Assembly: GCA_951406725.2 (NCBI GenBank) | Contig: CATOCA020000001.1 | Coordinates: forward strand, 3,162,001-3,226,000 | Origin: Octopus vulgaris | Lineage: Eukaryota | Direction: 5' to 3' | DNA length: 64,000 nt | In this document: piece after piece, positions 1,621 through 63,207 of the stretch | Layout of the letters: each line of letters starts with the position of its first letter | How positions within the stretch are numbered: position 1 is the stretch's first letter | Notes under the pieces: generated by a model | The model's database searches: none | Told to the model about the DNA's origin: nothing | What the model saw: only the letters and a program-made list of their open reading frames with translations | Position numbers and translations under genes: made by a program

Positions 1621-1989
1621 ATTGATTGATTGATTCTAGTTTCAGCTCATGAGCAGTGGCCATGCTGAGGCACCGCATACATGCATACATTCAGGGAAAA
1701 ACTTATAAAAGTTTCAGACAGTGTTGCGCTGCCTCTTTGTCCAATAATTGTAAGGGCATTAAGATGAAAACGAAAACATGGGAATGGGTTAAAAGAATGA
1801 GAGTATTCGAAACTTCTTGGCAAACGTAAGATTCAATGCTTCCAGTTTGATCTATATTTGCGTCATGCTTATATATGCTTAATTGTCAGTTATTGTGTAT
1901 CATTTCGGATATGTTTATGCAATAGTATGTAGATGACCAGTTAAATGTAGTTAATAAGGTTTTGTGCAAGTGTACAATGTTTCAGGATA

Positions 1990-2770
1990 CCTGCTGTCGC
2001 GGTGTCAGATTGTTTGGAGTTAGTCCAGCAATTAGAAATTGGTGTGCAGTAATTAATTGATTTATCTAAAATAGTAAAAAGTCGTTTCTGTTTTGTTTAT
2101 TCGATTGTTATTTACTTAATTCTTTGATAAAGTTGGTGCTGAGCGGGATTATCTCAATATTTTATGTCTATTATGTGTCAGAGAGAGAATTCTTACCACA
2201 TGTAGTTTAATTTCTACTCAGCCCTTTAATAGATCTATAACCAGAGGTAGCTGGTCATAGCCTCAGTGAAAAATACAGATCTAACCCGTCAGATATTCTA
2301 TTCTTTCATTTTGTTAATCATCACACAAGGAACTGCTAAAATGCCTCGTTTTGTTGTGTACGGCGGATTGTGGTAGCAGTCAGGGTAGAATATGATATCT
2401 CTCCACCGTGCAGTTTGTAATTGTACATCTGAACTCCTACTAGTGTTAACGACTTTGGTAATGGTCAAATTAAACATTGCAAGATAATCACGGATTTCTC
2501 TCTATAGTACTAAGCTCCACTGGTGTATATCAGTGTTTTCAGCTCGCGGGACGACTGGTGCAGCTATCTCTGTGTTTATCGACAATTAATGGGACGGAAG
2601 CGTTTTGGAAATGGTGTTGTAGGAACTGTGTGCAATATTTTAGTTAAATTAGGAAGATTTGAGTTGTTATATCACGAATTATGTCGGATGTTGCTGTTAA
2701 AAAATATTATCTCTTCATATCTTTTAACAATGTTTTAAACTTTTATTTTTGCTGTTGTCTTTTCTTAGAT
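1990..2770 (+). repeat. Diverged paralog of the intron end at ~33800-34681
   Basis: Shared collinear blocks cagatctaacccgtca, ggtagcagtc, ctggtgtatatcagtgttttcagct and gttaaatt.g.aagatttga; both copies end in a pyrimidine tract and AG. Confidence 0.75.
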
Positions 2771-3498: not shown

Positions 3499-3570
3499 GG
3501 TTTCCCAAGTCTCAGAACAAGCAAGTCCAGACAGTGGCATTTACTTCAAAAGATGCATCACAGCAAGTTG
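3499..3570 (+). CDS. 72-bp phase 1-1 exon of the + strand gene: (G)FPKSQNKQVQTVAFTSKDASQQV
   Basis: Acceptor tatttatttcag, donor G|gtgagt, open frame; same splice context as the 51-bp exons downstream. Confidence 0.75.
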
Positions 3571-5175: not shown

Positions 5176-5226
5176 AGACGCCAGCACTTGTTGACAATGA
5201 AGTTCAAACAGAAGTAGGACCAGTTG
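5176..5226 (+). CDS. 51-bp microexon copy 1: ETPALVDNEVQTEVGPV
   Basis: ttcag|AG ACG CCA ... CCA GTT G|gtgagt; symmetric phase 1, no stop. Confidence 0.8.
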
Positions 5227-9677: not shown

Positions 9678-9726
9678 TATTCATATACATATACATACAC
9701 ATATACATTCATACATATATACACAT

Positions 9727-10030
9727 ATGACGTCAAACAGCTTTAAGACCCGTTGGTACGCCCACACACACTCGTTCCGGCGACCTGATAAATCCAACCA
9801 AACTACCCTCGCCGCCCACATCTGGTACCTTAAAAGGAACTCCATCCCCTTCAAGACCAAGTGGAGACTACTACAGAAGGCCCGTTCGTACGCAGGAGGC
9901 CATACCTGCTGTGACCTTTGTATTTCCGAGAGCCTAGAGATCTTGTTCGCCAAAGGCCATCTCCTCAACAAGATCTCAGAACACTCCCCAATTTGCATGC
10001 ATAAAATTTATGCAAACTACAAGAACTATA
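9727..10030 (+). pseudogene. C-terminal part of the Penelope-like GIY-YIG endonuclease
   Basis: [17 protein letters not shown]...TTLAAHIWYLK...CDLCISESLEIL...LLNKISE...CMH, the F-K-x-R..H / CDLC..E / LLN..E pattern. Confidence 0.8.
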
Positions 10031-10293
10031 GACCCACCCGCAACCCGATTGACGACACCCCACCCACAAAAAAACCCAACCCCTCCGTTCCCCCAGCACC
10101 CCCGATTAACTTTCCTCCTAAGACTACTCACAGATTGTATATGTACACCTGTATATATGTATTGTATATATGTATAGAAATGAATAGGTGTTAGTAGGAA
10201 TATACGCATGTATGTGAGTGCGTGTATATGTATGTGTATATGTATGTACTTGTGTATGTGTGTATGTGTGTGGTTTTTTATATCTTATTTGTT

Positions 10294-14142: not shown

Positions 14143-14193
14143 AGACGCCAGCACTTGTTGACAATGAAGTTCAAACAGAAGTAGAACCAGTTG
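14143..14193 (+). CDS. 51-bp microexon copy 2: ETPALVDNEVQTEVEPV
   Basis: Intact AG/GT sites, phase 1-1. Confidence 0.8.
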
Positions 14194-18130: not shown

Positions 18131-18181
18131 AGACGCCAGCACTTGTTGACAATGAAGTTCAAACAGAAGTAGAACCAGTTG
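18131..18181 (+). CDS. 51-bp microexon copy 3: ETPALVDNEVQTEVEPV
   Basis: Intact AG/GT sites, phase 1-1. Confidence 0.8.
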
Positions 18182-18623: not shown

Positions 18624-20511
18624 CATAAAATTCATAGAGCACTCTATGAATAAATGGCAAACAGTCCTACACCTCCAAACAAAAGAGGGACTCATGAAAA
18701 CCAAAGACATCCCCATTAGAAGAGGAATATTCCAGGGAGACACGCTCTCTCCACTCCTTTTCTGCTTGGCACTGTCACCTCTATCTGATATGCTAAATAG
18801 AACTGGATGCGGATATAAATGTTACGGCAAAACGATCAGCCACCTTTTATATATGGATGACCTAAAACTATACGCTGCAAATGACAAACAGCTGGAAACA
18901 CTATTAAAGACAGTTCATGGATTTACCAAAGAAATAGATATGAAATTTGGATTAGAAAAATGCGCCAAAGTAACCATGAAAAGAGGAAAACTAGTTAAGA
19001 GTAACAACATCACACTAGATAAAACCAATGAAATAAAAGAATTAGACCAAAGCCAAACTTACAAATACTTAGGAATCCATGAACTAGATAAGACACAACA
19101 CACACAAATGAAAGAGAAAATAAAAAAAGAATATTATAGACGAGTTAGATCAATACTAAACACAGAGCTCAATGCTAAAAACAAGATAATAGGTATCAAC
19201 ACTTTAGCTGTCCCAGTTATAAGTTACAGCTACAATATCCTTAACTGGACACGAAATGAACTGACCAAAATAGATAGGAAAACAAGAAAAATAATGACAG
19301 GATCTAGGATGCATCACCCAAAATCTGACATATAAAGACTATATATACAACGTATGGAAGGTGGTAGAGGCCTTATACAGCTGGAAAACTACTATAAAAT
19401 AACCACCATAGGACTGCAAAAATATCTACTTCAGAAGGAAGGAAAACTGATCCAGATAGCGGCAAAACACGAGCAAAACAAAAAACTGTTCTCAGTATTT
19501 AAGGAAGCTGACAAATACAAACAAGAAATCATACCACCTAATAAACATGAAGAAGAAGAAGAAGATGAAGAAACAACAAAAGCTATAAAACAAATGAAAT
19601 CCAAACTAAAAACAGAACAGCAACGAACCATGATAAAACGATGGCAAGAAAAGCCCCTTCATGGTAAATACTGCACTAAACTAAACGCAAAAGAAATAGA
19701 CAAAGAAAAATCCCAGCAATGGTTGAGAAGCTCAGGACTCAAAGCAGAAACAGAGGGATTTTTAATTGCAGCACAAGACCAAAGCCTCCCCACCAGAAAT
19801 TACCAAAAACATGTAATGAAAAGAAATATTACAAGTAACTGCAGAATATGTGGAGATGGACAAGAAACAATAAATCATATTATCTCTAGCTGCCCAGTCC
19901 TGGCTAAGAAGGAATATATTCACAGACATGACAGAGTTGGAACCTACATACATTGGAAGCTATGCCAACATTATGGAATAACAACAGAAAAAAGATGGTA
20001 TAGGCACACACCAGAAAAGGTCACAGAAAACGAGAAAGCAACCATACTCTGGGATATGCCGATACACACAGATAGAGAAATTAAGGCCAACAGACCAGAT
20101 ATAGTTGTCAGAGATCATGAAGAAAAAAATGCTTTTTAATTGATGTATCAATACCGGCAGATGACAACGTGTCTCTAAAAGAAATGGAGAAACTCTCAAA
20201 ATACAAAGACCTGGAAATAGAGGTAACTAGAATGTGGAATCTGAAAACAGAAACAATTCCTATCATAGTAGGTGCATTAGGCATGATAAAAAAATATTCA
20301 GACAAATACATAACAAAAACACCAGGACTTACAAACACATATAACATACAGAAAATTGCACTACTAGGCACTGCCCACATCCTACGCAGAACACTTTCCA
20401 TACAATAACCATCAGAGCATCACAACAAATCACAGCACATACCCAAGGCACACAGAGCTGCGCTCGGTAGTGAAGTGAAAGCACGCTATAAAAATAAAAA
20501 TAAAACTACTG
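18624..20511 (+). mobile_element. 5'-truncated R4/Dong-clade non-LTR retrotransposon (RT, CCHC, RLE) in (AAT)n
   Basis: GIFQGDTLSP, LLYMDDLK, CRICGDGQETINHIISSC, RPDIV...IDVSIP...EKLSKYKDL. In-frame TAA at 19333-19335 and an A-run frameshift at ~20130. (AAT)n on both sides. Confidence 0.9.
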
Positions 20512-23776: not shown

Positions 23777-23827
23777 AGACGCCAGCACTTGTTGACAATG
23801 AAGTTCAAACAGAAGTAGAACCAGTTG
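23777..23827 (+). CDS. 51-bp microexon copy 4: ETPALVDNEVQTEVEPV
   Basis: Intact AG/GT sites, phase 1-1. Confidence 0.8.
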
Positions 23828-24762: not shown

Positions 24763-27107
24763 GTTCAGCTGCTCAATGGAATTATGAGAGACCCAAAGAA
24801 AACACCTGAATGTTTAGCACGTGGCATTACTTACCTACTCCCAAAGAATAACGAAACCAACCTTCCAAAAAACTATAGGCCTATAACCTGTCTATCCACC
24901 ACGTATAAAATCCTAACATCTATCCTGGCGGAGAAAACATATGCATTCATGGAGAAGAACGATATTCTCCCCATTGAACAAAAAGGCTCTTACGGATGCA
25001 AAGATCAACTGCTAATCAATCGTATGATCCTTGAGAACTGTCACAAGCGCAGAAAGCTCAGCACCGCATGGATTGACTATAAAAAGGCCTTCGACAGTAT
25101 ACCGCATCCATTGATCTTGAAATCGCTGGACATCTTCAAAATTTCCCCTGTGATTTCAAACTTCCTGAAGCACAATATGTCGTTGTGGAATACGAATCTC
25201 CAATTATACCACTCTAATGGAGTACTTGCCTCAGAAAATATAAACATCAACTGTGGAATTTTTCAAGGTGACTCACTTTCACCTTTAATATTCTGCATAG
25301 CCCTAATACCACTTACAAGTGAATTAAACAGAACAGGGTATGGGTATAAAATTGCCAATAAAAAAATAAGCCATCTATTTTATATGGATGACTTAAAACT
25401 TTATGGTAAAGACAATAATGAACTTGAAGGCCTATTGCACACCGTGAAAGCATTCAGCGATGACATCGGGATGGAGTTTGGACTTGAGAAGTGTGCCAAG
25501 GCCACTTTCCAGAAAGGTAAAGTGAAGACCACAAATTCAGTCGTGTTAGATGTTGACACAGTCATGAGAGAGCTTGAGCAAGAACAAACATACAAATATT
25601 TAGGGATAAATGAAGGCTCTGGTATTCAGCATGCAAGCATGAAAGAAAAAATCAGGAAGGAATGTTATAGGAGAGTTCGTGCAGTCCTGAAATCTGAACT
25701 AAATGCACGTAACAAGGAGTTAGCTATAAATTCCTTAGCAGTTCCAGTTGTTACTTATAGCTACAATGTGTTGAACTGGAATATGAGTGAAGTAAAGAAT
25801 ATAGATAGAAAAATATGCAAGCTGCTGAGTTGTAATAGGATGCACCACCCAAAGGCAGACGTAGATCGCCTTTACCTTCCCAGAGCCCAAGAAGGTCGAG
25901 GCCTGATCCAATTTGAACTAGCTTACAAAACAACCACAATTGGACTGGCCAAATATCTCGAAATATCGAATGACTGGATGCTAAAGCTCGTGGAAAATCA
26001 CGAGAGACGAAAGAAGCTTCATTCTATCATAAAGGAAAGCAAAAAATTTGCTATTGATCTCGTGCAGGATACCCAAACTGAACAACCCGAGGGAAGTAGG
26101 GCAACTATTGTTGTAAAGAAGGTAAAAATGATGCCAATGAAGAAAGCGCACGAGCAATTGGCTGATAGGTGGGAGGAGAAACCTCTGCACGGCAAATATG
26201 TGACCCGCAGCAAACAAGCTGATGTTGACCAGAAGCAAACCCATCAGTGGCTACGGAGCTCAGGGCTAAAAGCAGAGAGCGAAGGTTTCATCCTGGCTGC
26301 TCAAGATCAAAGCCTATTAACCCGGAACTACCAGGCCAATGTGATGAAAAATGGAGCAGACCCAAAATGCCGATTCTGCAACGACATGATTGAAACAGTG
26401 GACCACCTAATCTCTGGATGTAAAGTCTTAGCACCAGTGGAGTATAAATTAAGACATGACAGAGTTGGCCAATATCTCCACTGGCTAATAAGTCGGCATT
26501 ACAATATCAAAACTGCCGACAAGTGGTATAATCACCACCCTGAGGCTGTAACTGAAGGAGAAAATGTAACCATTCTGTGGGACTTTCCAGTACATACAGA
26601 CCGACCCATCAAGGCCAATAAACCAGATATTGTTGTGAAAGACCAAAACAATAAAGTTTGCTTATTGATCGACATGAGCATCCCCTGTGATCATAATATC
26701 TCAGCGAAAGAGTTTGACAAGCTCAGAAAATATAAAGACCTGCTCATTGAAATTGAGAAAATGTGGCATCTCAAGGCGGTTACAATACCAGTGATCGTAG
26801 GAGCACTAGGAATGATCAAGAAGGGAACCGAAAATTATATGAGAATGATCCCTGGCTTACCAACCCTGCAAGAAGTGCAAAAGATTGTCTTAACTGGTAC
26901 ATCACACGTATTGAGAAGAGCATTGTCGATGTGAGAACTGTTGCTGCTCATGTATTTTAATTTAACTTAAAAAAAAAAAAAAAGAATAAACAAACTACTG
27001 AGTTTGGTTTAATGGCTTACCAATGTATACTATGAGTTTCTTTGCCCTAGGAGTCGGGAAGACACTCGGCAAGAAATGGAAGAGAATTTGAAAGAAGAAA
27101 AAAAAAG
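24763..27107 (+). mobile_element. 5'-truncated R4/Dong retrotransposon, third family; ORF open to 26934
   Basis: NYRPITCL, WIDYKKAFDS, GIFQGDSLSP, FYMDDLK, CRFCNDMIETVDHLISGC, KPDIV..LIDMSIP..KLRKYKDL; A-rich tail followed by (TAA)n. Confidence 0.92.
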
Positions 27108-29369: not shown

Positions 29370-30211
29370 ATATAAATATATATATATATATCAACATACA
29401 TATATATCTACATACATATACATATATACATTCACACACACATAAATATGTGTGTATGTGCTTGTGTGTTTGTGTGTGTACAGATAATGAGTTTCTATAC
29501 AAGAGTACAGTGTTTTGGGATACCTGATATCACTTTCTGCTCCACTTGCTTAGGAGCAAACATTGTTCACCTGAAAATAGCTGCTTATTAAGGAGGATTA
29601 ATGACATTGAAATATCTTCAAATGTTTCCAGAATCATATCCTATTCTGATGAATTGTGATGTGGGGATTTAAGATTAAAGATTACCAGCAGCAACCTTTT
29701 AAAAAGAGAGCAGGTGTATATTAATCCTACTTGATGTATTGTGACATGCGTTTATGGTTAGATGTTTGGAGACCAGCTTCATTGACATCAGAATTAGAAG
29801 AGGAGAAGAATGTTGATTAGAGAAATCTGCAGGTGATAAGACAAGGCCAAATCATTGATAGGGCTCCGACTGATGAAAGGGCAAATTAATCTAGGTGATT
29901 ATCAGTGTTTTCAAATGAAAAATTAAAGAAGGTAATGATTAGATTATATAGATGTCTTAATAGGGTTATTGTTAGATTATGTAGGATGCCATAATTGGGA
30001 TATATAGGAAGGTGAGTCTATTTAGTTGTGGACCTGGATATTGAGCGATTACATGGTATTACTGTAGAAAATATGAAAATGTCGACCCGAGCAGTACTGG
30101 TCACCAGCTGACCAGCAACGACAGGAATACCTCACAAGAATAAAATTTTGATTATTAAGAAATATAAAGATGTTTTTCTATGAAGTGTAAAATTTAGAAT
30201 TTTTAATTCAG

Positions 30212-30262
30212 AGACGCCAGCACTTGTTGACAATGAAGTTCAAACAGAAGTAGAACCAGTTG
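30212..30262 (+). CDS. 51-bp microexon copy 5: ETPALVDNEVQTEVEPV
   Basis: Intact AG/GT sites, phase 1-1. Confidence 0.8.
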
Positions 30263-30571
30263 GTGAGTATAAATCAACATTACCTTTTTGACTTCTATCA
30301 AGTTTGCCATTACCTCATCTACTTTATTAAGGAGGATACGTGAGAAGTAAATGAGATATGTAAGATGTCTTAATTGAGAGCGGAGATTTAGGAATGCCAA
30401 TCAATTTTGTGGAGGGCATAAATAATGGGCCCACTGTTGAAAGTATATAAATATTGACCGAAACCTGTGCGAACTCTTGTAGACCATTGATGGTAGGGAT
30501 CTCTCACAATAACAGAATATAGATTATTGATAATGATAAAAAGACTTTAGTGTAAATAATATTTATTTCAG

Positions 30572-30625
30572 AGAATCTAAAGCTTGAAGGGAAATAAGTG
30601 CAGACGATGGTAGCAGAGCCAGTTG
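30572..30625 (+). pseudogene. Dead paralogous microexon ENLKLEGK*VQTMVAEPV
   Basis: Acceptor tatttatttcag intact, in-frame TAA, donor mutated to G|ctaagt. Confidence 0.7.
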
Positions 30626-31427
30626 CTAAGTATAAAATAACAGCAGCCCACAAATGTCTATTTTGCCTTTGTTTCTATGGCTGCCTCATGTGTCGATAGA
30701 GAAAATGGTGAAATACGACAGAGAGTGATCTGGGAGGGAGGGTTAGTTTATAAGTTTGTGAAAGGAAGGTAGTAGAGGAAGGAGGAATGGTGGATATGGT
30801 TGGGGATGAGAAACAGTAGGGCATCATATGTGCATGTAGGTACATGAGGGAGAATGGAGGAGAATGCGACATGTGTGGGGGAGGCATTGTTGGGGGACAA
30901 ACATGCGCTTATGACCTTGATTTTATTTAGGTTGGTGGTTGTTCTCAAGCACAGAAAACTGCCAAGTGACTGTTAGGCTCAACATTTCAAGATCATTACT
31001 CACCATTTCGTCCCATTCTTCCTGGGTATTCATTAGGGAAATCTGGAGGTGAGAGAACAATGCCATATCGTAGATTGGGCTCCGATAGATGGAAGGGAAA
31101 ATTAAACTAAGAGATAATCCGTGTTATCAAGTGATAATTATATAAGATAATTATTAGATTATGTAGATATCTTAATAGAGTGATTCTTAGATTATGTGGG
31201 ATGTCTTAATAGGGAGATATATGAAGGTTAGTCTATTTAGTTGTGGGCCTGAATATTGAGCTATTACATGGTATCCCTATAGAAAGTATGAAAATGTTGA
31301 CCCAAGCCGTACGGGTCACCAGTTGACCATCAAGGACAGGAATGTCACAGAATAACAAAATTTTGATTAATAATTAAGATAAAGACATTTTTCTGTAAAG
31401 TGTAAAATTTAGAAAATTTTGTTTCAG

Positions 31428-31478
31428 TTACTTTAACGCTTGTTGACAATGAAGTCCAAACAGAGGTGGAGCCAGTTG
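31428..31478 (+). CDS. Older paralogous 51-bp microexon: VTLTLVDNEVQTEVEPV
   Basis: gtttcag|TT ACT ... GTT G|gtgagt. Synonymous differences (GTC, GAG GTG GAG) keep LVDNEVQTEVEPV while the flanking intron has diverged. Confidence 0.8.
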
Positions 31479-32007
31479 GTGAGTATAAATTACCAATACC
31501 TTATTGATTCCTATCAATTTTACCATTATCCGAGCAACTTTGTTTGACAGAATGACTGAGAACAAGTTCTTTTGCTACATTTATTTCGAATGGTTAGCTA
31601 CACATTTTTTTTTCGATTCTTGTACAACTACAGGAATATCCAAGAAATGGATTTTATAGAAAAGTGGAAGCATCAGATATTCTTCCACTCAGAAAAAAAG
31701 GCGTCTCAAGATAAGGAGAAATATGCAAAAGATAAAATATAAACCCTTAAGCGGTTCTGTCCCTTTAAGGAGAATAAATACCGTCTGTCATCTCAATTTA
31801 GTCTCTCTCGTCCTCTCCCTTTTTCGCTCTCTTCCACTCCCTTTGTATACAACAAGCAGCAGCTCCTCTCGTTCCCAGTCAAGTAACCACATCAATTTGT
31901 TTTTTAAAATATTGTTATTATTGAAATTTAATAAAATGTCCACCAAGGTTATCGCTGTTGGCAAAATGGCTAAATTAGAAAACAGAATAGAGTTAATATT
32001 GTCCTTT

Positions 32008-32225
32008 GGGAAGGTGGTGAGCTGGCAGAAACATTAGAACGCTGGGCGAAATGCTTAGCTTTACTTCATCTGTCTTTACATCCTAAGTTCAAATTCCACC
32101 GAGGTCGATTTTGCCTTCCATCCTTTCGAGGCCGATAAATTGAGTACCAGTTGCGTACTGGGGTCGATCTAATCGACTGACTCCGTCGCCAAAAGATTCT
32201 GGCCTTGTGCCTAGAGTAGAAAATG
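32008..32225 (+). mobile_element. tRNA-derived SINE
   Basis: A/B-box-like head (gagctggcagaa...gttcaaattcc) and a 12-bp TSD atattgtccttt (31996-32007, 32226-32237); same family inverted at 56031-56217. Confidence 0.8.
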
Positions 32226-34681
32226 ATATTGTCCTTTAGAATAGGAACTAAAAGGATTTTGTTGTTTAAAGGTAAACGGGTGATTTAATGACAAAGTGTT
32301 TGTTCGTTTTACATTTTTAGTAAGCTTACTGATTGATTATTGTTGTTGGTGCTTTTGCTTAACCAGATGTTATGGTGAAACTTGTTCCAATAGTGAACAG
32401 CCTGGTTTTTTTTCACTGTCATTACGTCCACTATTCAACCATTACATCTATTCAATATTGCCTTTATTCAAGTAGAAGGCTGCTTTGCAGCTCAGACAAG
32501 CTCTCTCTCTGTCTTTCTTTTTCTCTCTCTATTTCTCTCTCTCTCTTTCTCGCTCCCTTTCACTATCTGCAAGTTTCAATACAGTAAATGATATCATCCT
32601 CTCCCTTTTATCATCTGCTCTCTATGCTCCCATGTACTGGATGGGTGGTCACTGTCCATGTCATAACAGTAAACTACCCATAATGATTGCTTGAGGATTA
32701 CCTCTCAATTAACCATTCCAGCTTTTTCATGGTGGTATGCCCTTCTTATCACCAACCACTTTACAAAGGGTCCTGGGTGAATATAATTGTGGCACAAACA
32801 CTACAAGAGATTGCCATGTCCTCGGCAAGATTAAACCTCCCTCTCAACCTTACGGTGTCAATTCTCATCCAACAACCACCTCCTAGTGTGTAGAGGGAGC
32901 ATTTGATCATAGCACCAGCATTAGTGAGGTTGTGTCACATTCCAAGTTATTAGAAAGTTAGTCCTCACTACTCTATGATGTGTTTGTTCACTGATATGTT
33001 TAAGATGGGAGAAGAAGAGATTATAGAAGAATCGGAATGCAAAGACTAAAAGATACGAGACAATAAGGATAAAAAAAGTGATTCGAAGGAGCGGTGGAGG
33101 GTGACAACAGTAAATGATGGAGACTGAGTTACAACGGTGTGTGAGGTACCAGAGTGCTTAATTATTTATTAACATTCCTTGGTTGCTCACTCTCACTGTT
33201 TCTCTTGCCCTCCTCCTCTCACTGGGTAATCATGTATGTCTTCTACTATAGGACACCTGTTTCAATCCCTCTGTCACAGTCGAACCTGTCATCCTCTGAC
33301 ACACGACCACCTCCTCCTCCAATGCTCTCCCTCTCAAAGGTTTTTTGTCTTGCAAGTTCTTTGGTGACCCCTACCAGTGCTTGTGGATCCAGATCCCACT
33401 GTAAGGTTGTTGGTGTTGGGAAGAGTATCCAGCTGTAAAATCCTGCCAAATCAGACAGTGATGCCTGGTGCATTCTTCTCCCTAGCCAGCCCCTGACAAA
33501 ACGTACAAACCCTGCCAGAATGGGGAACCGACGTTCAATGATGATAGTGGTAGTGATGGTAGGTAGCGATGGATACTAATTACTTGCAAATACATCAAAG
33601 TTATACATGTTAAATTAGGAGAGAGACTGACCAAATCTCAACTGAGATAATGGATAATTACAGGTTTCTGGATTGCCATAAATACTAGTAATTACTATCA
33701 CATGGGTAATTACAGGTTTATATATTTCTGTGAATATTTTCATATATATCTGTATATTTGTAAAACACTAATTAGTATTTTAAATCAGAGCATTTAGAAT
33801 TAGCCCAGCATTAAGGAAGTGGAGTGCAGAAAGTTATTGACTATAAATTATCAATAATTATTCGTTATCTCTAAATCGGTAAAAGGCAATTTCTGTTTTG
33901 TTTATTCGAATTTTATTTACCTCATTCATTCATAGAATTGGTGTTGGGGCTAATCTAATTTTTAACATCTAACATGAGGTCAGGGAGAGAGAGAGAGAGA
34001 GAGAGAGAAGAGAAAGAGAGAGAGAGAAAGAAAGAGAGAAGGAGAAAGAGAGAGAGAGAAAGAGATCATAAATCTTAGGATTGGTCGTGTAATAGCTACT
34101 CAGGCCATATTTAGTACTCACATACATACACACACATATATATAACAATACGCAGCTGGTCACAGCCTCTGTAAAAAACACCCAGATCTAACCCGTCAAA
34201 TATTCCATTCTTTCATCTTGTTAAACATCACAGAGTTAACTTACAAAATACAGTGTTTTGTTTTGAGGGGTGGAGTGTGGTAGCAGTCGGGATGCAATAA
34301 ATTATTTCCTCATTGTACAGTATGTGGTTGTACATGTGTAGACCTTCTAGTATTAACCACAATTGAAGTGGTCAAGGTATACATAGCCAGATCATCATGG
34401 ATATCGCTCTTCAGTAACAAACTCCGCTGGTGTATATCAGTGTTTTCAGCTTGTAACCCCACTGATGTCGCTATTTCCGTGTTTATCTACAATAAATGAA
34501 ATGGAAAGTGTCTTGAAAATGGTGTGGTAGGAATGTTGTCCAATATTTTCGTTAAATTGAGAAGATTTGATTTTTTTTGTGACTCGAATTGCGTAGGAAG
34601 TTGCTGTTACAAATTAATATTACCCATTCATGTCTTTTGAAAATTTAATATAATTTTATTTCTGTTGTTATTGTTATTCAG

Positions 34682-37503
34682 ATGATCACTACATGCAGAT
34701 ACCACGTTTTGACTGTAAAAGTATTATGAAGTCGCATTCATCCAAATTCCGTCCCCTTTGCCCAGCTGTGTCCAAAATATTGCAGCTCACAGATTCCGAT
34801 AATGATTCCAAGAACTTGGTCACAGTTTCAAGAATCGTTGAAATCTGCAATGGAATAGTAACCTATTCACCAGATTTGAAGTTAATAAGTTGTGCCACAA
34901 CAGGCGGTGATTTTGATTTTCATTGTTCTTCTAATGTCACAGACATGACAAGAATTGGTGAACACACTGTTCTAGCCACAATTCCTTTCCGCAAGAAAAT
35001 AGTTTTCATTAATCCATCAAGTTTCCACATAAAATCTCTGGATTATAGTTTCTTTACAATTTCTTATTTCGAACATTCTACATTTGTAGGGACTGAAATG
35101 TTTAGTAAGACAATATATCTCATAGACTGGGATAAAAATAAATTTGAAGAAAAATTTAGTGTGCAAGAAATTGTTGGAAACATAGCAGTTGGTCCACAGT
35201 ATCATATCTTAATAGCCTTAGCTAATATAAATAGAATTAGCTGTTACACAATAGATGGCAGACACTTGTTTCAGTTGAGGACACATTCCATCGATATTCC
35301 AACCGACCTCACCGTATATCGAAATTATTCTTACGCTCTGCAAGGAAATGTAATTTACAAGATTTCAGCAAACGGTGCTGTGTCCCAAAGAGAAATTGGG
35401 ATAAAAGCTCGATATATTTGTGTGGCAACAAATAATATTTACTTGACTGACCGTTTTGGTCTTGCACATATTATTAGGACAAATAAAGATGTTTGGCCTC
35501 GGCTGTCTTACCATCACCAAGACCATGTCCCGAGCCTGATAAACCAAATCCATATTGATGACCCCTCCAACATTACAACGATTCTACCTATGTCAGCCTC
35601 TTCAGTAGTAATTATATATCGGGATCTAAAAGCTATATTAGTTACTGACGAAGGGCAACCGTTTGGTGGAAAATGTTTAACCTTTAAACTCCAGCCTTCT
35701 GTTTTCTGCAGAGTGGATTCGAACACATTTCTTGTCCTTTTTAGTGAGGACAGGTAACTTCAGTATATTACCTGTCCACAACTAACTGAAGGTGATTTAA
35801 TAGACGTCGAAAACAATTACATTCAAATGTGTCATATGGTATCAAAAAGGTGTTTGGCTCTGACCACCAATGAAGGTAAAGTGGAGGTACATATTTTATT
35901 GATTAAAAAGGATCATGTCGACATTGTAAACAGAATTTCATTGGAACATGACAATGTCGCCATTGCTGCTACTCCAATTAATTTTGTAGTTGTAGACAGA
36001 AAGAAACGTAACTTGTTATTTTATTCAAGCTTTGGTGAGGAGCTTTCCAAGAAAAACATTGAGTTCAATGGCTATCCTCATCATGTTTTCACAGACAAAT
36101 TATACTTCTATGTTATCTTCAGGAGAGAGTCTTTGATGACTTGTTACAATATAACTGGACAAAGGAAATGGCAGTTGAAACTTCCTTCAAACTTTCTCTG
36201 TCACGCTGCTGTTTTCCAAGGAACAGCTTATGTGCTGGACGATCTGCTCAGTCGGATTCTTCTTTACAAGTACCATGACTGGTCAGACTGTCATGTAACC
36301 TTTCAAAATCCTTATAATAAAAATCTAAATATTCGACTCGAAGAAAAGGAGAATGACCAAGTTCTCATTGGTGAAATATGTCATCTGGCAAATGGACAGT
36401 TGGTGTTGTCCGACATATATAATGATTGTTTGTTATACATTTCCAACGAAGGGAACATTGTGTCTAGATTATCTCTGCCGTCTACAGCTACAGATGTATG
36501 TCGATGGAATTATAATCAGATAGGCGTCACATTACCTCTAGAGAAGCAATTACGGGTCTTCGGAAACGTATCAAAGGCAGTTATAAGTGTAGCATTAAAC
36601 CAGGCTTATGTACGGGTGTGTAAGCTGGGTGAAAGTCATATTATTTGTTATTGCGATAAACCATCGCATTTAGATATTTTAAACATTAAAAATTGTAATC
36701 AAGTTAAAATAATTCATAAAATTAATATTCCTTTTGTAATGAAATAATTATCGTTAGAAAATGAAACACTAAAGCTATTGATTGTTGGTAAGAAAGCAGT
36801 ATTCTTCTACAAGATCATCAGGAAGAGGGGAAGAAGTGTTTTACCATCCGAAGTGAAAACACCCTCCAATCTCTATGGTTATGACGGTGGTCCTTATAGC
36901 ATTGAGATGATACCCAATATTTTACTGTCGCAAGGGAAAACACAATCCAATCTCTATAGTGGACGTATTGATAAAATGTGTGTTCATTTGATAGACAACA
37001 GCCGCATGTTTGCTGTAAATGAGCATGACTTGCTGGTGAAAGATCATGTCACAAGAAGCCAAATTAACATGTTCATCGATCTAGTAGATGTATTTTCTAG
37101 AAACATCAGTCTCAGTGAAATGTTGTCTTCTAGATTGTATCTACAAGATCTCACTGTTTCTGATAAAGCTCATGAAGTTGTTGTCCCTCAAAGTTTTGGA
37201 GATAGACATCCAGTGGAGATTGGTTGTTTGGTTATTACAGAAAATAACCTGGTTGCTTTATATGACAGCACAAATGAAAACATTAAGATATTAACTTTTG
37301 ATGGTCAACTTGTTGACTCTATCAAGTTAAATGTTGTCCCTAGACATATGTGTTGCTGGCGATCAAACACATTGGTTATAACGACCAATAACTATCAACT
37401 TCTGACATTAAAAGTGGAATTCCCATTGGTCTTGGCAACTTACCACACGGAAAATCGATACAATTGTATCGCTTGTCGATCCGACAATCTACTGGTGTGT
37501 AGC

Positions 37504-37574
<71 letters not shown>

Positions 37575-39532
37575 CAGTAATGTTGGTGGTGGTACCTACA
37601 TACCCGAAATTGAAAACGGCCTGTTTTATATATATATCGATGAAATACAGTCAGCTGTCCGTATTATGAGAGAAATAGACTTATTTTGGATGTGCTACAG
37701 ATATAATATCACCCATATCTCAGTTATTGCTAATGACAACATCATCGTCAATACCGAGAGGCTCATCACTATTCTGAACCCGAACGGGCAATATTTATAT
37801 TCATTTAAGCACAGTATTTATTCCCGACCCATTTCTATGGCAACCAATGATACTTATTTGTACATTACTGGACGGAAGAACATCTATGAAAACACGAAAA
37901 AGTATCGTATTGTCTCATTGTTGCAGAACGGTGAATACAAGAGAATATTCTTAAATGAAAGACATTATAAACGTCCGTTGGATTTCAACAGTATTAACTG
38001 TAAAGGCCCGAGAATTGTTGCAAACTATGACTCGTACTTATATATTGAAGGTTTGTACAAGATTAATCGGGAAAAATTCCCCCGTTTCACGGTTACAAAC
38101 AAACAATTTTCCTGTTCAAGTAAAAGATATCGATATCTCTGATGAAGGAAAGACAGCTGTGTGCGAAATGGCCAATAGTGGAAATGTTAAACTATTTGAT
38201 GAAGACGGGAAGTTGCTATGTTACAGAGATTTTGGAAGTTTTGTTGGTGGTGTATGTTTTACAGGAGAAAGAAATATCTTGGTCACAGTCCCTAACAGAC
38301 AAGAAATATTTCAACTGAAGTCACAAAACTTGGAGAAATATAAAGTTTGGGAAAGTCGAGTACCTTATGGTATAATATGGAGAAAAGTGGGAAATATTTA
38401 CTGGTGTGTACATATCAACATGATTGAATGTGATACTATAAAAATTGATGGGGACCAACTGAAGGTTCTGGAATCTATGTCGTTATCGAATATTGATTTT
38501 GGCCTTCACTTCCCTTCCATTACATCTAAGAAGAACAAGGGAATGTTCAGTAATGAATTATTTAACAAACTTAAAAACGGTGGCGATGGAGGAGAAAGAA
38601 GTACATCAAGGAAAATAGAAGTAAGACGTGGTAATTACATAGCGGAAAGTATGTTAGGAATTGATGAAATATCAGTGAGAAGACTGCCACATAGAACAGC
38701 AATGTTCCCGCTTTCATTTTCTCTATCTGGTTTACTAGATTCAAATTCGATGTTTTGTTTTCTTAATGCTTTTAAGCTAATTATGTTACAAGACAATAGT
38801 ATCGTCGTGCTCCTCTATAAATGTACTCTCATGGTCACCAGTGGAGACGGTCATCTGCTTTACAGTCAAACATTTGAAAAAGAAGCTCAAGATATATGTC
38901 AATGGACCGATGAATCATTTGTAGTCCTCTTTCGTGACGATAAACAACTGATTTTCTTCGATACAGATTTGTGTCTTTTAAAAAAGATCACAACTGAAAA
39001 ACCATACAATTTAATGTACAAAAAGAACGCCAATAATCTGGTATGTGTGTTTGAAGACGCTCCAAATGAATGTAGTAATATTCCATATGTGACATACGCA
39101 GACATACTTCACATTGGCGGTGAAATGTACGAGTATAAGGGCCGAGTGAATTTAGGGAAGGAGGGGAAGGTTGTAGCAATGGGTGTGACATCGAATGAAG
39201 ACATCGTCGTTCTTAAGTACAAGGAAGATCATTACGATGTATGTTGGTACAGAGACAATTGGGTAAGAAGTCAACAACTAATGATTCAAGGTGAGGAACC
39301 ATTTCCAAACATTTTCAACAAATCCTTGACCATCCACGGCGAAAATATTTACATATCAGATTTTAATAACAATATCCACCAAGTATCTGTAGACAGCAAA
39401 TGCGAAATCTTTCTCAGCTCTCAGGAAATTGAAGTCTGCCACATCAAGGCCATACATGTTTCGGATTATTTCATCATGATTTACGGAAATTTGGACAACC
39501 GTTTTGATGGATTATTTTATTATGAGAGATAA
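34682..39532 (+). pseudogene. Single 4.85-kb terminal exon encoding ~6 tandem NHL-like beta-propeller domains (disrupted)
   Basis: Acceptor gttattcag at 34681; phase 1 puts it in frame with ORF 34693. ORFs 34693, 35827 and 36778 share a frame and are separated by single TAA codons; +1 frameshift in a C-run at ~38078-38082. Repeated blades such as IGEICHLANGQLVLSD...ATDVCRWNYNQIGVTLP and VKDIDISDEGKTAVCE...VGGVCFTGERNILVTVP. Confidence 0.8.
37501..37578 (+). repeat. In-frame (AGT)n microsatellite encoding poly-Ser
   Basis: About 26 consecutive Ser codons inside ORF 36778-38142. Confidence 0.95.
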
Positions 39533-39703
39533 GGCCCTATATTGAATCAATATATGTTACGAGCAATTGGCATTAGCAGCCTTTTGACTATATTTCTTTA
39601 TTCGATGGGACGCTTCTGGAATAGTCACACAAAATACGTAGGTTTTAGCTTGGATCCTTGAACAAAGATAGTTACCATAATGATTCCTAATTAGTTAATT
39701 GAT

Positions 39704-39709
39704 AATAAA
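39704..39709 (+). promoter_or_regulatory. Candidate polyadenylation signal
   Basis: First AATAAA, ~170 bp after the stop at 39532. Confidence 0.35.
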
Positions 39710-40033
39710 ATATTAATGAACTAGAAACAGTGTATGTATTCCACTGGAATAGCGTCTCACCCCCCCCCCCCACACACAATAACGACATTATCTGATTCAA
39801 TTTGTTACTCTTATATGTTAACAATCTTATAAAAGAAACAAAATCTCCATTTAAATTCTTATATTGTCTCACCTTGTCGTTTTTCCTCTCAACAAATCTT
39901 TCAAATGTTTTTTTTTCTTTATTTGAATATATTTTATATATTTAACCCTAATTTAAAGATAATGCTTAATCTTAGAAAGTTAGTTTGAATTAATCACAAA
40001 ATTATATTCATAAACCAATGCTCGAAATATATA

Positions 40034-48629: not shown

Positions 48630-51290
48630 CAATTTAAGAAGCATTTATTCAAAGAATCCTCCTACACCTGGTTTGACATCATGCTAGAAATAACAGCCCA
48701 CTACACTCAAAGTTGCTTTGTTTTTCATACGAAATTGAAAGACAATTTAAGAAGCATTTATAAAACTTTATCCCGGATCTGGTCAGACTTCTTCCTCGAA
48801 TGAGAAACCAAGTGAAGAAGCGTCTATAAAACGTATTGGTGGTCTGTTATCTTGCTAGAAATAACAGCCCACTACACTCAAAGTTGCTTTGTTTTTCATA
48901 CGAAATTGAAAGACAATTTAAGAAGCATTTATAAAACTTTATCCCGGATCTGGTCAGACTTCTTCCTCGAATGAGAAACCAAGTGAAGAAGCGTCTATAA
49001 AACGTATTGGTGGTCTGGCGTCTTGCTAGAAATAACAGCCCACTACATTCAAAGTTGCTTTGTTTTTCATACGAAATTGAAAGACAATTTAAGAAGCATT
49101 TATAAAACTTTATCCCGGATCTGGTCAGACTTCTTCTTCGAATGAGAAACCAAGTGAAGAAGCGTCTATAAAACGTATTGGTGGTCTGTTATCTTGCTAG
49201 AAATAACAGCCCACTACACTCAAAGTTGCTTTGTTTTTCATACGAAATTGAAAGACAATTTAAGAAGCATTTATAAAACTTTATCCCGGATCTGGTCAGA
49301 CTTCTTCCTCGAAGGAGAGACCAAGTGAAGAAGCGTCTATAAAACGTATTGGTGGTCTGTTATCTTGCTAGAAATAACAGCCCACTACACTCAAAGTTGC
49401 TTTGTTTTTTATACGAAATTGAAAGACAATTTAAGAAGCATTTATAAAACTTTATCCCGGATCTGGTCAGACTTCTTCCTCGAATGAGAAACCAAGTGAA
49501 GAAGCGTCTATAAAACGTATTAGTGGTCTGGCGTCTTGCTAGAAATAACAGCCCACTACACTCAAAGTTGCTTTGTTTTTCATACGAAATTGAAAGACAA
49601 TTTAAGAAGCATTTATAAAACTTTTCCCGGATCTGGTCAGACTTCTTCCACGAAGGAGAAACCAAGTGAAGAAGCGTCTATAAAACGTATTGGTGGTCTG
49701 CTATCTTGCTAGAAAAAGTCAGCCCACTACACTCAAAGTTGCTTTGTTTTTCATACGAAATTGAAAGACAATTTAAGAAGCATTTATAAAACTTTTTCCC
49801 GGATCTGATCAGACTTCTTCCTCGAATGATAAACCAAGTGAAGAAGCGTCTATAAAACGTACTGGTGGTCTGTTATCTTGCTAGAAATAACAGCCCACTA
49901 CACTCAAAGTTGCTTTGTTTTTCATACGAAATTGAAAGACAATTTAAGAAGCATTTATAAAACTTTATCCCGGATCTGCTCAGACTTCTTCCTCGAAAGA
50001 GAAACCAAGTGAAGAAGCGTCTATAAAACGTATTGGTGGTCTGGCGTCTTGCTAGAAATAACAGCCCACTACACTCAAATTTGCTTTGTTTTTCATACGA
50101 AATTGAAGGACAATTTAAGAAGCATTTATAAAACTTTTTCCCGGATCTGGTCAGACTTCTTCCTCGAATGAGAAACCAAGTGAAGAAGCGTCTATAAAAC
50201 GTATTGGTGGTCTGTTATCGTGCTAGAAATAACAGCCCACTACACTCAAAGTTGCTTTGTTTTTCATACGAAATTGAAAGACAATTTAAGAAGCATTTAT
50301 AAAACTTTTTCCCGGATCTGGTCAGACTTCTTCCTCGAAGGAGAAACCAAGTGAAGAAGCGTCTATAAAACGTGTTGGTGGTCTGTTATCTTGCTAGAAA
50401 TAACAGCCCACTACACTCAAAGTTGCTTTGTTTTTCATACGAAATTGAAAGACAATTTAAGAAGCATTTATAAAACTTTTCCCGGATCTGGTCAGACTTC
50501 TTCCTCGAATGAGAAACCAAGTGAAGAAGCGTCTATAAAACGTATTGGTGGTCTGTTACCTTGCTAGAAATAACAGCCCACTACACTCAAAGTTGCTTTG
50601 TTTTTCATACGAAATTGAAAGACAATTTAAGAAGCATTTATAAAACTTTTTCCCGGATCTGGTCAGACTTCTTCCTCGAATGAGAAACCAAGTGAAGAAG
50701 CGTCTATAAAACGTATTGGTGGTCTGTTACTTGCTAGAAATAACAGCCCACTACACTCAAATTTGCTTTGTTTTTCATACGAAATTGAAAGACAATTTAA
50801 GAAGCATTTATAAAACTTTTTCCCGGATCTGGTCAGACTTCTTCCTCGAATGAGAAACCAAGTGAAGAAGCGTCTATAAAACGTATTGGTGGTCTGTTAT
50901 CTTGCTAGAAATAACAGCCCACTACACTCAAAGTTGCTTTGTTTTTCATACGAAATTGAAAGACAATTTAAGAAGCATTTATAAAACTTTTTCCCGGATC
51001 TGGTCAGACTTCTTCCTCGAAGGAGAAACCAAGTGAAGAAGCGTCTATAAAACGTATTGGTGGTCAGTTATCTTGCTAGAAATAACTGCTCACTGCACTC
51101 AAACTTGCTTTGTTTTTATACGAAATTGAAAGACAATTTAAGAAGCATTTATAAAACTTTTTCCCGGATCTGGTCAGACTTCTTCCTCGAATGAGAAACC
51201 AAGTGAAGAAGCGTCTATAAAACGTATTGGTGGTCTGTTATCTTGTTAGAAATAACAGCCCACTACGCTATACTTTACATCGTTTTTATG
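48630..51290. repeat. 171-bp satellite, 15 full monomers
   Basis: tgctagaaataacagccc recurs (a few copies with minor variants) at 48682, 48853, 49024, 49195, 49366, 49537, 49707, 49879, 50050, 50221, 50392, 50562, 50732, 50903, 51074 and 51244. Confidence 0.97.
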
Positions 51291-56934: not shown

Positions 56935-57390
56935 TTACTCCATTCGGATTTTCGGTTGAGAGTAGGTTTGTATTCTTGTATACAAACAGCTTCTGTGACC
57001 TATCTCAACATTGCATCGGTGGGATGTGTTGATAGGATGTTTAACTTAAGTTTCCCTGAGGATCCCCCGTGGTAGTCCACAGCATGTTGGTAGAAGATGG
57101 AGTTTGGCTACCTTTCAATGTAGTTGTCCAGGTGTTCTTTGAACCTATCATTGATACTTCTAGAAGTCTCACCTATGTATGACTCTCGGTTAGTCTCGCA
57201 AGCTCCTTCTTGGCACTCAATTTGGTATACAGTGCCCTTGGTTTTGCAGTTCACATGTGGGTTTGTCGAACATACTGCACAATTACTTTGACAGGTGATT
57301 CTATCAAATGGATATGAACTGCATAATGGAGATTTGGCATTATGCAATCGGCATTATGCAGATCATATCCATTTGACAGAATCACCTGAG
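56935..57390 (-). mobile_element. Penelope-like GIY-YIG endonuclease fragment with a short 5' inversion
   Basis: CQSNCAVC...NCKTKGTVYQIEC...C...YIGETSRSINDRFKEH...*PNSIFYQHAVDYH...R*VTEAVCIQEYKPTLNRKSEW. Confidence 0.85.
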
Positions 57391-60767: not shown

Positions 60768-60973
60768 TCACCGTTCATCTAATGAGAGATATTCAAGGGC
60801 AGCAAAGCACTCAGCATCTTTAAGGCCTCTTCTGAGGTTCTCAACTGTACGTTCCTCTGGTTTACAATTTATAAACCAATCACAAAGCATTTGATAACTC
60901 TGCTTTACTGTGTCACAAGGGAAAACGTTCTTGATAATATCCTGGTCAATTGCTGGAATTCCTAAAAAAATAC
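60768..60973 (-). pseudogene. Terminal exon encoding the C-terminal part of a death domain
   Basis: tcttttgcag acceptor, phase 1: GIFLGIPAIDQDII...KQSYQMLCDWF...TVENLRRGLKDAECFAALEYL...*. AATAAA on the - strand at 60534-60539. Confidence 0.8.
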
Positions 60974-61016
60974 CTGCAAAAGATACAATAAGAAATAACA
61001 GCAACAGTATTAACAA

Positions 61017-61409
61017 TCTCTCTCTATATAAAGCTGAAGTCGTCTGTGTATGGCAGGTTTGGTAGCCTTCAACTAACATTATCTCCTCTGAGACCCTGAG
61101 GCGCAAGTTGATCAAAATTGAGAATATGATAGAAGAAGCCTTGCTCTTCATTCCGTAGAAGATAAAATTCAAATCAGACCATGTTAAGACCAAAAATTAT
61201 TTACATCAATAGGCTACTTTTTTTCTATGAAAATCCTTATTTTTTAACGATTTTTTTACTGATGTGTCGCCATTGTTCGGTGTATTTCAACCAGAAAAAT
61301 GTTCACTTAAAGAGAATAACAAGCTATATAATGCTAAAATTTTACTTTTCAAAAATTCCAGTTCTAAATGGTCAAAACAAACCTGAGCAACGCCGGGCGA
61401 TACTGCTAG
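61017..61409 (+). mobile_element. Non-autonomous Helitron-like element
   Basis: 5' TC, 3' CTAG, A|T target; 3' 29 bp identical to the 40034 element. Confidence 0.75.
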
Positions 61410-61915
61410 TGTTATAGTAAAAGTCTTTATCTTTATTAACAATCTAAATTTTATTATTGAGAGACATTCCTAACATGAATGGTCAACCAGCAATCACAAT
61501 GGCTTTGGACAATAATTTTATACTGTCACCATTTAGCGTTTAAACCGGCCATATCCGGCCCAAATATTCTATATGTTTTATATCCAAACTGGCAATATTA
61601 AGCCTCTCATACCAAACCTAAATTGACATTCTAAAAATAAACAATCGCAGCATTGAAACCTCAAAGATATAAGATAATGCATGATTAATTCAAAACAATT
61701 TGAATAAAAAAATATTACATTTAACAGAGTAATCTGAACACTAAAGGATTCAACAATATTTAGATCCAAAACAAACATTTGATTGATCTTCGTAAATGTC
61801 CTCTATTAAGACATCTTACATAATCTAACAATGTTGCAATTATATCACTTAATTATCACTTAATTACAGTTTCTCTCTAAGTTTTGTTTACTTTGCTTAT
61901 ATCTGTGCCAAATCA

Positions 61916-62243
61916 TGTGAAGGCGCATGGCTCAGTGGTTAGAGCGTTGAGCTTATGATTGTGAGGTTGTGAGTTCGAATCCCGGACCGGGCTGCGTGTT
62001 GTGTTCTTGAGCAAGATACTTTATTTCACGTTGCTCCAGTTCACTCAGCTGTAACAAAAGCTAGGTCAAGCTGTATCGGCGCCTTTTCCCTCCCCATGGA
62101 TAACACTGGTGGCGTGGAGAGAGGAGGCCTGGGCGACTGCTGACTTCCATAATCAACTTTGTCCGGACTTGTGTCTGGGAGAGTAACTTTCTAGGTTCAA
62201 TCTCATGGACAGTCATGACTGAAGGGATCGCTCTCTTTCCATA
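61916..62243 (+). mobile_element. tRNA-derived SINE
   Basis: Head ggcgcatggctcagtggttagagcg...gttcgaatccc (A and B boxes); TSD tgccaaatc. Confidence 0.8.
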
Positions 62244-62499
62244 TGCCAAATCTATTACATGGCATTGTTCTCAAGACTAATCTTCACTAACAATCTGCTT
62301 AATTCCAATGTCAGACAAGTTATTCATCAAAGATCTAGTAACAAACAAATGTCACAACCACTTCAAGAAGGATAAACATACACCTAATCTCTTTGTTAAA
62401 CATTGTTGCTGATAATATTTAATTTTACATTTTATTCTACACAATAAGGGCAATGAGACAAGCAGGACAAACAGACAGATCATCAAAGAGCATTCTTAC

Positions 62500-62639
62500 C
62501 AACTCGACTTCTGCTTGTTACAGGTTTTAAACACCTCAGACATCATTTCAGTGGAACGTTTGAACATTCTTCACATGTCACAAGGTGTCCACAGGGATGA
62601 ACTTTTGTTGTGGCTGCTTTATTTCTGCACCACAATCAT
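62500..62639 (-). pseudogene. RING-finger exon, Mind bomb (MIB)-like, with two TGA stops
   Basis: ttgcacag|A...G|gtaag: *LWCRNKAATTKVHPCGHLVTCEECSNVPLK*CLRCLKPVTSRSRV; C3HC4 pattern with the first Cys lost to TGA. Confidence 0.85.
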
Positions 62640-63074
62640 CTGTGCAAAGAAATACAAACATATCTAATCAATAACATTCATTTATAAGAAATATGACATT
62701 GTGTACGTGTTTACAGAAGAGAATATTATGAAAGACTTCAGTGACAATCAAGAGCACATCAGAAATTCTTTAAACCATTACATATTGGCAGATTTGTGTG
62801 TAGCTAAATAGTCCATGCACACACACACACACACACGTACATAAAATTTGGGGTGCCAGTGAGGTACCTCTGTCAATAGAACCCATTATGTGAATGTAAT
62901 TGAAACAGTGTTCTTTCTTTGACCACCCAACAACTATAATTGTTGTTTTGTGCTACCTTTCATCAAAACACTAGCAACAGTTTTATTTATTGTTAGAATT
63001 TAAACGAAACACACATATAAACATGATTATTATATACAAAATAGTTTATCTTGTCATTGCCAGGAAATACTTAC

Positions 63075-63207
63075 TGTGGCGGTAAAAATGTTTGTAATTT
63101 TGTTTTCAAATTTGGGTTTTTAATGAGGTACAATGGCTGGCGAGATATCTGGTAACCACAAGGCCAGAGAACCTTTCGTCTTTGCTCAAGCTGAGCTCAG
63201 TGCAGCA
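63075..63207 (-). pseudogene. Post-ankyrin exon of the MIB-like pseudogene (internal deletion/frameshift)
   Basis: tttgtag|CCTELSLSKDERFSGLVVTRYLASH / LIKNPNLKTKLQTFLPP-CA|gtaagt; the phase-2 donor matches the RING exon. Resembles the MIB ..A.YLA..GAD....N...TPLDL..DP.L...L segment with its middle deleted. Confidence 0.7.

Follow-up and report, generated by a model that had tools for sequence, protein, structure and literature searches.

An octopus exon predicted to encode a tandem array of NHL-type propellers is spliced to mini-exons of an unrelated gene family

Introduction

The closest described relatives, in fold, of the element reported here are the TRIM-NHL proteins (Brat, Mei-P26, TRIM2/3, TRIM71/LIN-41 and the cuttlefish protein P0142), which carry a single C-terminal propeller. 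Here we analyse a 4.85-kb exon of Octopus vulgaris that is predicted to encode six tandem units of this kind. It occupies positions 34682-39532 on the forward (+) strand of a stretch of 64,000 nucleotides (nt) of contig CATOCA020000001.1 (positions 3,162,001 to 3,226,000), referred to as a whole as the window. Like TRIM-NHL proteins, its product has six-bladed NHL-type propellers by structural superposition (Z 20-24, root mean square deviation [rmsd] 3.0-3.9, ~245 residues) in C-terminal position, no predicted signal peptide, and a weak sequence link to the family (E 4.8e-7, cuttlefish). Unlike them, it has six units instead of one, lacks a B-box, a filamin domain and any Pfam NHL match at gathering score, and is only 10-13% identical to solved NHL domains; its RING, if present, would come with ankyrin repeats from another family. 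With no B-box and six units it falls outside the TRIM-NHL family, while being TRIM-NHL-like in fold and probably in logic.

The second relevant group comprises octopus proteins labelled 'MIB1/MIB2-like', of the type ankyrin-RING-(VQT)n-Death (P0056, P0062, P0072). They share with the locus phase-1 mini-exons encoding a VQT motif and homologous introns, but end in a Death exon where the locus has the 4.85-kb propeller exon. Mind bomb ligases (MIB1/MIB2) contain a MIB/HERC2 and ZZ substrate module. By Pfam, P0001, P0062 and P0072 have no domains other than ankyrin, RING and Death, and by the last two the ankyrin-RING-Death family is not a true Mind bomb family. The octopus family (53 matches) is itself expanded and labelled 'MIB2-like' without having the Mind bomb N-terminal domains.

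Several propellers per chain are also present in tandem-propeller scaffolds (megalin/LRP2, DDB1, IFT-A). Such proteins headed our Foldseek list, but with whole-chain TM-scores below 0.2 and 7-11% identity the likeness is one of layout only, and their propellers are extracellular YWTD or seven-bladed WD40-type. The octopus gene expansions described so far centre on protocadherins, G protein-coupled receptors and C2H2 zinc fingers (PMC9795677, partial text). Neither literature searches nor the main text of PMC9068888 and PMC9795677 (both partial) yielded a description of a six-propeller family, which the supplementary gene-family tables could list; the large octopod family is thus apparently undescribed. 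The dozens of very large, unannotated genes of this family, with their variable binding faces, form an expansion distinct from those and a candidate repertoire for intracellular recognition.

Results and Discussion

Exon structure and reading frame

Four long open reading frames (ORFs) of 367, 329, 464 and 525 codons (stop to stop) lie on the + strand within the exon, compared with a longest ORF of 162 codons in 300 base shuffles of the region. The following features were annotated:

34682..39532 (+): intronless terminal exon of ~1,616 codons encoding the propeller array; phase-1 acceptor AG/AT, stop codon TAA at 39530-39532
35755..35757 (+): premature TAA (stop 1), inside propeller 2
36745..36747 (+): premature TAA (stop 2), inside propeller 3
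37499..37579 (+): (GTA)27 microsatellite giving an in-frame poly-Ser in a b-c (top) loop of propeller 4
38079..38083 (+): frameshift, one extra base in a C run, between units 4 and 5
39704..39709 (+): AATAAA, candidate polyadenylation signal; one X8 contig continues to 39840

Four of 24 listed sequencing runs (X2, X8, X18 and X20, from four studies) were mapped as contigs onto 30100-39900. None of the listed runs is on record as RNA; X8 and X20 were treated as RNA-type because they contain GT..AG joints that the DNA run X2 lacks. As the subfamily has several near-identical copies, run contigs may derive from another copy than that of the window. Differences between window and runs were listed for 40 of 180 substitutions and 12 of 17 indels.

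Stop 1 reads AAA (Lys) and stop 2 TCA (Ser) in all four runs, and the same residues occur in 6/6 close database relatives. The extra base of the C run was absent from both runs with listed cover (X8 and X2); X18 and X20 have little or no listed cover 3' of ~37500 and were not used as evidence there. None of the lesions was seen in any other dataset covering them. The O. vulgaris gene model P0001 is identical to ORF4 and has the same shifted frame. Pieces of X8 span the whole exon except for three gaps of 22-106 nt. Since stops and frameshift are missing from the runs, the window copy is either dead or mis-assembled, and an intact version of the exon is transcribed.

The original prediction had read the four ORFs as one unit without introns. 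Intact paralogues align without interruption through all four, and no splice joint inside the exon is listed in the four mapped runs, so both statements hold; separate genes for the four ORFs were rejected on the continuous paralogue alignments and on run contigs that cover the exon without joints. Adenosine-to-inosine editing as a rescue of the stops was likewise rejected, the differences being T>A and A>C and present also in the DNA run X2.

The window copy shows 7 private amino-acid changes in 573 aligned positions, two of which are the stops and some of which affect residues conserved across paralogues; this fits a decaying copy or a consensus error. The published O. vulgaris reference combines Nanopore reads with short-read polishing (PMC10700109, partial text). 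C>A-type differences were skewed 11 to 1 towards the window (p 0.006), but changes of this class were also common when the duplicates within the window were compared with each other (21 vs 33 transitions). The substitution spectrum does not decide between decay and assembly error.

Predicted fold of the array

The exon was divided into the following units:

34831..35478 (+): propeller 1, six blades in the AlphaFold2 (AF2) model (strands at residues 50-265; propeller matches at ~43-275 of the model)
35533..36270 (+): propeller 2, six blades in AF2, structural match over model range 278-533; holds stop 1
36367..37149 (+): propeller 3, with five blades in the model and the sequence pattern of a sixth (low predicted local distance difference test score, pLDDT); holds stop 2
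37171..38049 (+): propeller 4, six blades, closest to TRIM-NHL, with hypervariable top loops, one of them containing the poly-Ser
38120..38683 (+): unit 5, truncated in AF2 to ~4 blades plus a low-confidence segment of ~45 amino acids (aa) replacing the others
38693..39526 (+): propeller 6, six blades, hypervariable top loops, match to the Brat NHL domain

With the stops read through (X at stops), AF2 predicted mainly beta-strand for units 1-4 (pLDDT 70, predicted TM-score [pTM] 0.36) as well as for units 5-6 (pLDDT 71). At a pTM of 0.36 the arrangement of domains 1-4 is not fixed by the model. Blades were counted by hand as strands in the models, the first blade of unit 5 being of low confidence. 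First blades start at 34834, 35572, 36367, 37219, 38120 and 38771, in agreement with the six recurrences noted in the original prediction. Its further remark that the repeats share no DNA-level identity was borne out by self-blastn, which listed none inside the exon (E<=1e-10, at least 100 nt).

The models were compared by full structural alignment with 48,161 chains. For the first model (units 1-4), ranks 1-5 were all TRIM-NHL domains. Unit 4 superposed best on Mei-P26 (Z 23.1, rmsd 3.9, 249 residues aligned), followed by TRIM2 (22.8) and TRIM71 (22.6); with LIN41 included, Z was 22.5-23.1 over model range ~826-1128. The best match of unit 6 was the Brat NHL domain (Z 20.6, rmsd 3.6, 244 residues aligned). 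Its top matches had Z 20.0-20.6, and Mei-P26, TRIM71, LIN41, TRIM2, a worm protein and a phytase came within 1 Z of Brat. Units 1-3 superposed on other propellers at Z 15.6-19.5. By these models five of the encoded units are six-bladed NHL-type propellers and the remaining one is truncated. Repeated NHL-like beta-propellers, as originally proposed, are therefore what AF2 and the structure searches predict, but the count of six has to be amended to five full propellers and a unit 5 of only about four blades.

Sequence methods reached this fold less readily. The Pfam NHL repeat (PF01436) was not found at gathering score in the four ORFs or in 22 relatives; the divergent paralogue P0125 scored 18.5 against a cut-off of 20. 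A PDB sequence search with ORF2 gave 0 matches, and one with the family profile gave non-significant matches only, among which the propeller members were all TRIM71, TRIM2 or TRIM3 (E 0.26-3). The Atlas lead was to NHL clusters (0.93), with recognition below the reliable level. When units were compared with each other by profile, 7 of 15 pairs reached an E of about 1e-3 or lower, and two (units 3-6 and 4-6) a probability above 90%.

An octopod multigene family

A protein search with ORF4 returned 50 matches (831-2370 aa), all of them uncharacterised proteins of Octopus (bimaculoides, sinensis and vulgaris), and 25 of the 50 sit on one 29.2-Mb O. vulgaris contig. This large family had been missed by the original prediction, as had the truncation of unit 5, whereas the position and the reading unit given there were correct. 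Intact members measure 1,600-1,900 aa (26 family proteins fall within 1,570-1,910 aa), and the window exon is collinear with P0003, P0005 and P0014 through all six units at 44-56% identity. Two divergent, conserved members have 1:1:1 orthologues at an identity of at least 90% in all three Octopus species.

For a wider search we used a profile of alignment A5, which is shallow and of limited reach (7 sequences, about units 3-6, 922 positions). Against 1.84 billion representatives it gave 33 matches. Family members accounted for 27 of these: 17 from named Octopus, one from Argonauta hians, two unnamed, and seven with 74-96% identity to Octopus proteins. The best match outside the family was the cuttlefish RING-Bbox-NHL protein P0142 (E 4.8e-7), which matches units 3, 4, 5 and 6 and aligns along unit 4 with an hhalign probability of 93.7%. 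No six-unit squid or cuttlefish protein was among the matches of this shallow profile, which covers annotated proteins only. WD40-type profile matches (one cyanobacterial) were short and weak. On sequence comparison, the family is octopod-restricted, unannotated and multigene, and its propellers are related to those of cephalopod TRIM-NHL proteins.

Most full-length paralogues open with a charged, helical-looking N-terminal region of ~100-190 aa. The window exon is without it: homology to paralogues starts at about 34696-34720, and no credible match to the helical region was found upstream within the window. Compared with the cuttlefish TRIM coil, this region of the paralogues gave no match, and Atlas returned leads only (<0.9). 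Neither RING nor B-box (Pfam) was found in intact paralogues, nor a B-box in 22 family proteins. A TRIM-NHL propeller may have been multiplied in tandem in an octopod ancestor after RING and B-boxes had been lost.

A tree built from 40 sequences over 701 columns, with the P0012 group as its root, joined the window to P0002 and P0017 (support 1.0), and the sister of this clade was the normal-headed clade P0003/P0006/P0112 (support 0.98). P0134, P0151, P0152 and P0153, which the tree does not include, are further copies of the window subfamily (97-99% identical). The subfamily stem measures 0.30 substitutions per site, and units 1-3 are still alignable. A foreign origin of the exon was rejected, the donor clade being octopus (P0003/P0006/P0112).

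Mini-exons and their host family

The propeller exon is preceded by seven phase 1-1 mini-exons that are open and encode a VQT motif, and by a further, dead mini-exon. These and the related elements are:

31428..31478 (+): 51-nt phase 1-1 VQT mini-exon spliced to the big exon (joint 31477>34681, GT..AG, in X8 and X20, not X2)
30212..30262 (+): 51-nt VQT mini-exon joined to 31428 or straight to the big exon (alternative splicing, from run joints)
30572..30625 (+): dead mini-exon with an in-frame TAA and a donor mutated from GT to CT; the reads skip it; read by eye
5176-5226, 14143-14193, 18131-18181 and 23777-23827 (+): four more 51-nt mini-exon copies in 96-98% identical tandem duplications, from sequence only
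3499..3570 (+): 72-nt VQT mini-exon whose first nine residues recur exactly in P0072, an ankyrin-RING model
31479..34681 (+): last intron; its paralogue at window 70-2756 matches at 71-82%, piece by piece
60768..63207 (-): ankyrin (63074-63207), RING (62500-62639) and Death (60768-60972) exons of a broken neighbour gene with frameshifts and a stop

GT..AG joints 30262/31428, 30262/34682 and 31478/34682 were present in X8 and X20 and absent from the DNA run X2. The RefSeq model P0108 has the junction 31478/34682, and all of O. sinensis P0108, P0134 and P0153 carry it. Capture of the mini-exons by the propeller exon is therefore shown. The original prediction had also supposed that the array was captured as a block. 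This is borne out to the extent that the exon starts after the helical N-terminus of its paralogues and is spliced to mini-exons of an unrelated family, but the donor was the octopus's own propeller family.

Tandem segmental duplications (95-99% identity) in window 3672-30435 multiply the VQT mini-exon about five times; they may reflect real copy-number variation of the linker or, in part, assembly redundancy. Window 70-2769 (+) is a paralogue of the last intron, homologous as far as the acceptor, and the sequence from 2770 on has no match to any stored protein. The junction at 2770 may be where the host exon lies or where a propeller-exon copy has been lost.

The mini-exons point to the ankyrin-RING-Death family as host. 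Exons of this type link RING and Death in that family. Of its 53 matches in Octopus, 25 contain [VT]QT, and 11 share a 12.0-Mb scaffold with the model that is identical to the window locus. The RING-to-Death intron of the broken neighbour matches the introns preceding the mini-exons at 73-81%, and the phase-1 junctions are compatible with the RING exon of the family. At three of the four O. vulgaris loci whose models contain the start of the exon, the model opens with ankyrin/RING (P0001, P0071/P0109 and P0152). The propeller block seems to have taken the place of the Death exon in a RING-ligase gene: after the tandem multiplication, the last intron of such an ankyrin-RING gene would have been fused to a family member at the point where propeller 1 begins. 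The neighbour gene is itself close to model P0100.

We slightly favour the view that transcripts with the propeller exon include the RING. Several observations weigh against it, or against the fusion protein proposed below. In all three O. vulgaris fusion models the mini-exons are left out and the RING differs from one model to the next, so the fusions may be joins made by the gene predictor in a cluster of ankyrin-RING genes. Ankyrin-RING exons are included in 0/4 O. sinensis exon-start models (on three scaffolds of 33-63 kb and one of 338 kb). No read connects a mini-exon with an ankyrin-RING exon; such exons would be located beyond the window. An intact fusion of ~2,100 aa is absent among the 50 matches of 831-2370 aa, and all annotated genomic copies of the subfamily that we looked at are cut short or omit some of the exon. 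A search with an ankyrin-RING query among proteins of 524-1668 aa showed no other octopus fusion, a weak negative, since it missed P0152.

Variable faces and possible function

Loop variability was compared in 17 diverse paralogues, with the top face defined as in PMC4015489 (partial text) and strand labels set by hand. In units 4, 6 and 2 variability was greater in the top than in the bottom loops, with an entropy of 2.09 vs 0.89 in unit 4 and of 1.94 vs 1.35 in unit 6. Length varied (standard deviation >2) in 7 of 58 top loops and 1 of 60 bottom loops. The effect is confined to part of the array, units 1, 3 and 5 having no raised top-loop variability; moreover, alignment error raises the entropy of indel-rich loops, and neighbouring values cannot be counted as independent, as residues are not. 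Insertions occur as well: a long acidic 9-residue repeat in the last propeller of the sister clade (P0003 and P0006, in their C-terminal part) and, in other loops, poly-Asp in P0009 and a Pro/Gln/His repeat in Argonauta P0123.

No hydrophobic N-terminal stretch was found in any of 10 proteins scanned, from which we read a cytoplasmic location. The most likely reading of these sequence features is a cytoplasmic multivalent recogniser. The array may act as a multi-ligand sensor, helped by the hypervariable top loops of propellers 4 and 6, whose faces would recognise targets (probably proteins or RNA) that change from one paralogue to the next, as in innate immunity. The linker contains a TQT/VQT-type motif. 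In ASCIZ, VQT/SQT sites contribute to binding of the dynein light chain LC8 (PMC5963919, partial text), and by analogy the VQT linker may bind LC8 and dimerise the protein. The RING would ubiquitinate the bound target or itself, and the whole would be a TRIM-NHL protein rebuilt from other parts. Tandem expansion, face variability and the RING/Death host suggest an immune role.

Our preferred, if tentative, explanation as a whole is slightly short of an even call: a cytoplasmic ankyrin-RING-(VQT)n-6xNHL protein of ~2,100 aa, i.e. a recogniser coupled to ubiquitination. The principal rival, which we consider rather unlikely, is a RING-less protein: only the mini-exons were captured, the transcript starts near them, and a short VQT leader with the array acts as scaffold or decoy like the RING-less paralogues. 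Three of the four O. sinensis models agree with it in beginning in or just before one mini-exon (P0108, P0134, P0153; P0002 starts inside the big exon), and so do the intact paralogues without RING or B-box, but the window's mini-exons offer no Met, a loose end at 30211 implies at least one further mini-exon upstream, and the phase-1 junctions fit the family's RING exon. Also conceivable, and improbable in our view, is that the array regulates RNAs post-transcriptionally by binding them at several sites, like Brat, Mei-P26 or TRIM71, instead of serving immune recognition. The closest structures are RNA-binding NHL domains, Brat-type domains bind RNA through their top surface (PMC4015489, partial text), and two conserved members have the 1:1:1 orthologues noted above. 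However, identity to solved NHL domains is low, unit 6 has a net negative charge, with 23 K+R vs 38 D+E, while the remaining units are close to neutral (whole-unit counts, not surface potential), and tandem expansion with top-loop indels suits diversifying targets better than a fixed RNA motif.

It is quite improbable that the chimeric subfamily consists of transcribed, decaying duplicates without protein function. Each annotated copy that we looked at is broken or incomplete, with the damage in different places, the window copy has the private changes described above, and 28 of 37 listed exon differences to the runs (a partial list) are non-synonymous. Against this, the listed X8 pieces cover nearly the whole exon and no listed substitution makes a stop, apart from the one that restores the frame, all listed coding indels are in-frame, and the long stem has not cost units 1-3 their alignability.

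Returning to the ubiquitin-coupled recogniser, the splice of the propeller exon to pieces of a protein-tagging (RING) family may make a new kind of intracellular sensor, and recent exon shuffling may have rebuilt a TRIM-like ligase from unrelated parts. A broader possibility, which we regard as doubtful, is that in the O. vulgaris/O. sinensis line the propeller exon became a swappable cassette within an undescribed, tandemly expanded octopod set of intracellular six-propeller recognisers with hypervariable faces, replacing the Death exon behind different ankyrin-RING ligases via homologous introns; if so, these ligases would have switched from death-domain signalling to direct target recognition. 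The junctions and domains of the subfamily are now defined, and its current gene models are wrong or partial.

Other elements in the window

A GIY-YIG fragment at 57111-57353 (-) (Pfam 23.1 bits) is probably Penelope-like, and a fragment at about 9700-10100 (+) resembles it by eye, with no Pfam match. Copies of a non-long terminal repeat retrotransposon (RVT_1 + zf-RVT) lie at 24772-26934 (+) and 18631-20408 (+), each directly after an (AAT)n array; the former has an open frame of 720 codons. The element may be of the R4/Dong type, going by its C-terminal restriction-like endonuclease motif and the microsatellite targeting. A tandem repeat of 171 bp (15 copies, 96% matches) at 48678-51266 is present too beside the paralogous copy P0017, so that the duplication unit reaches at least 10 kb past the gene.

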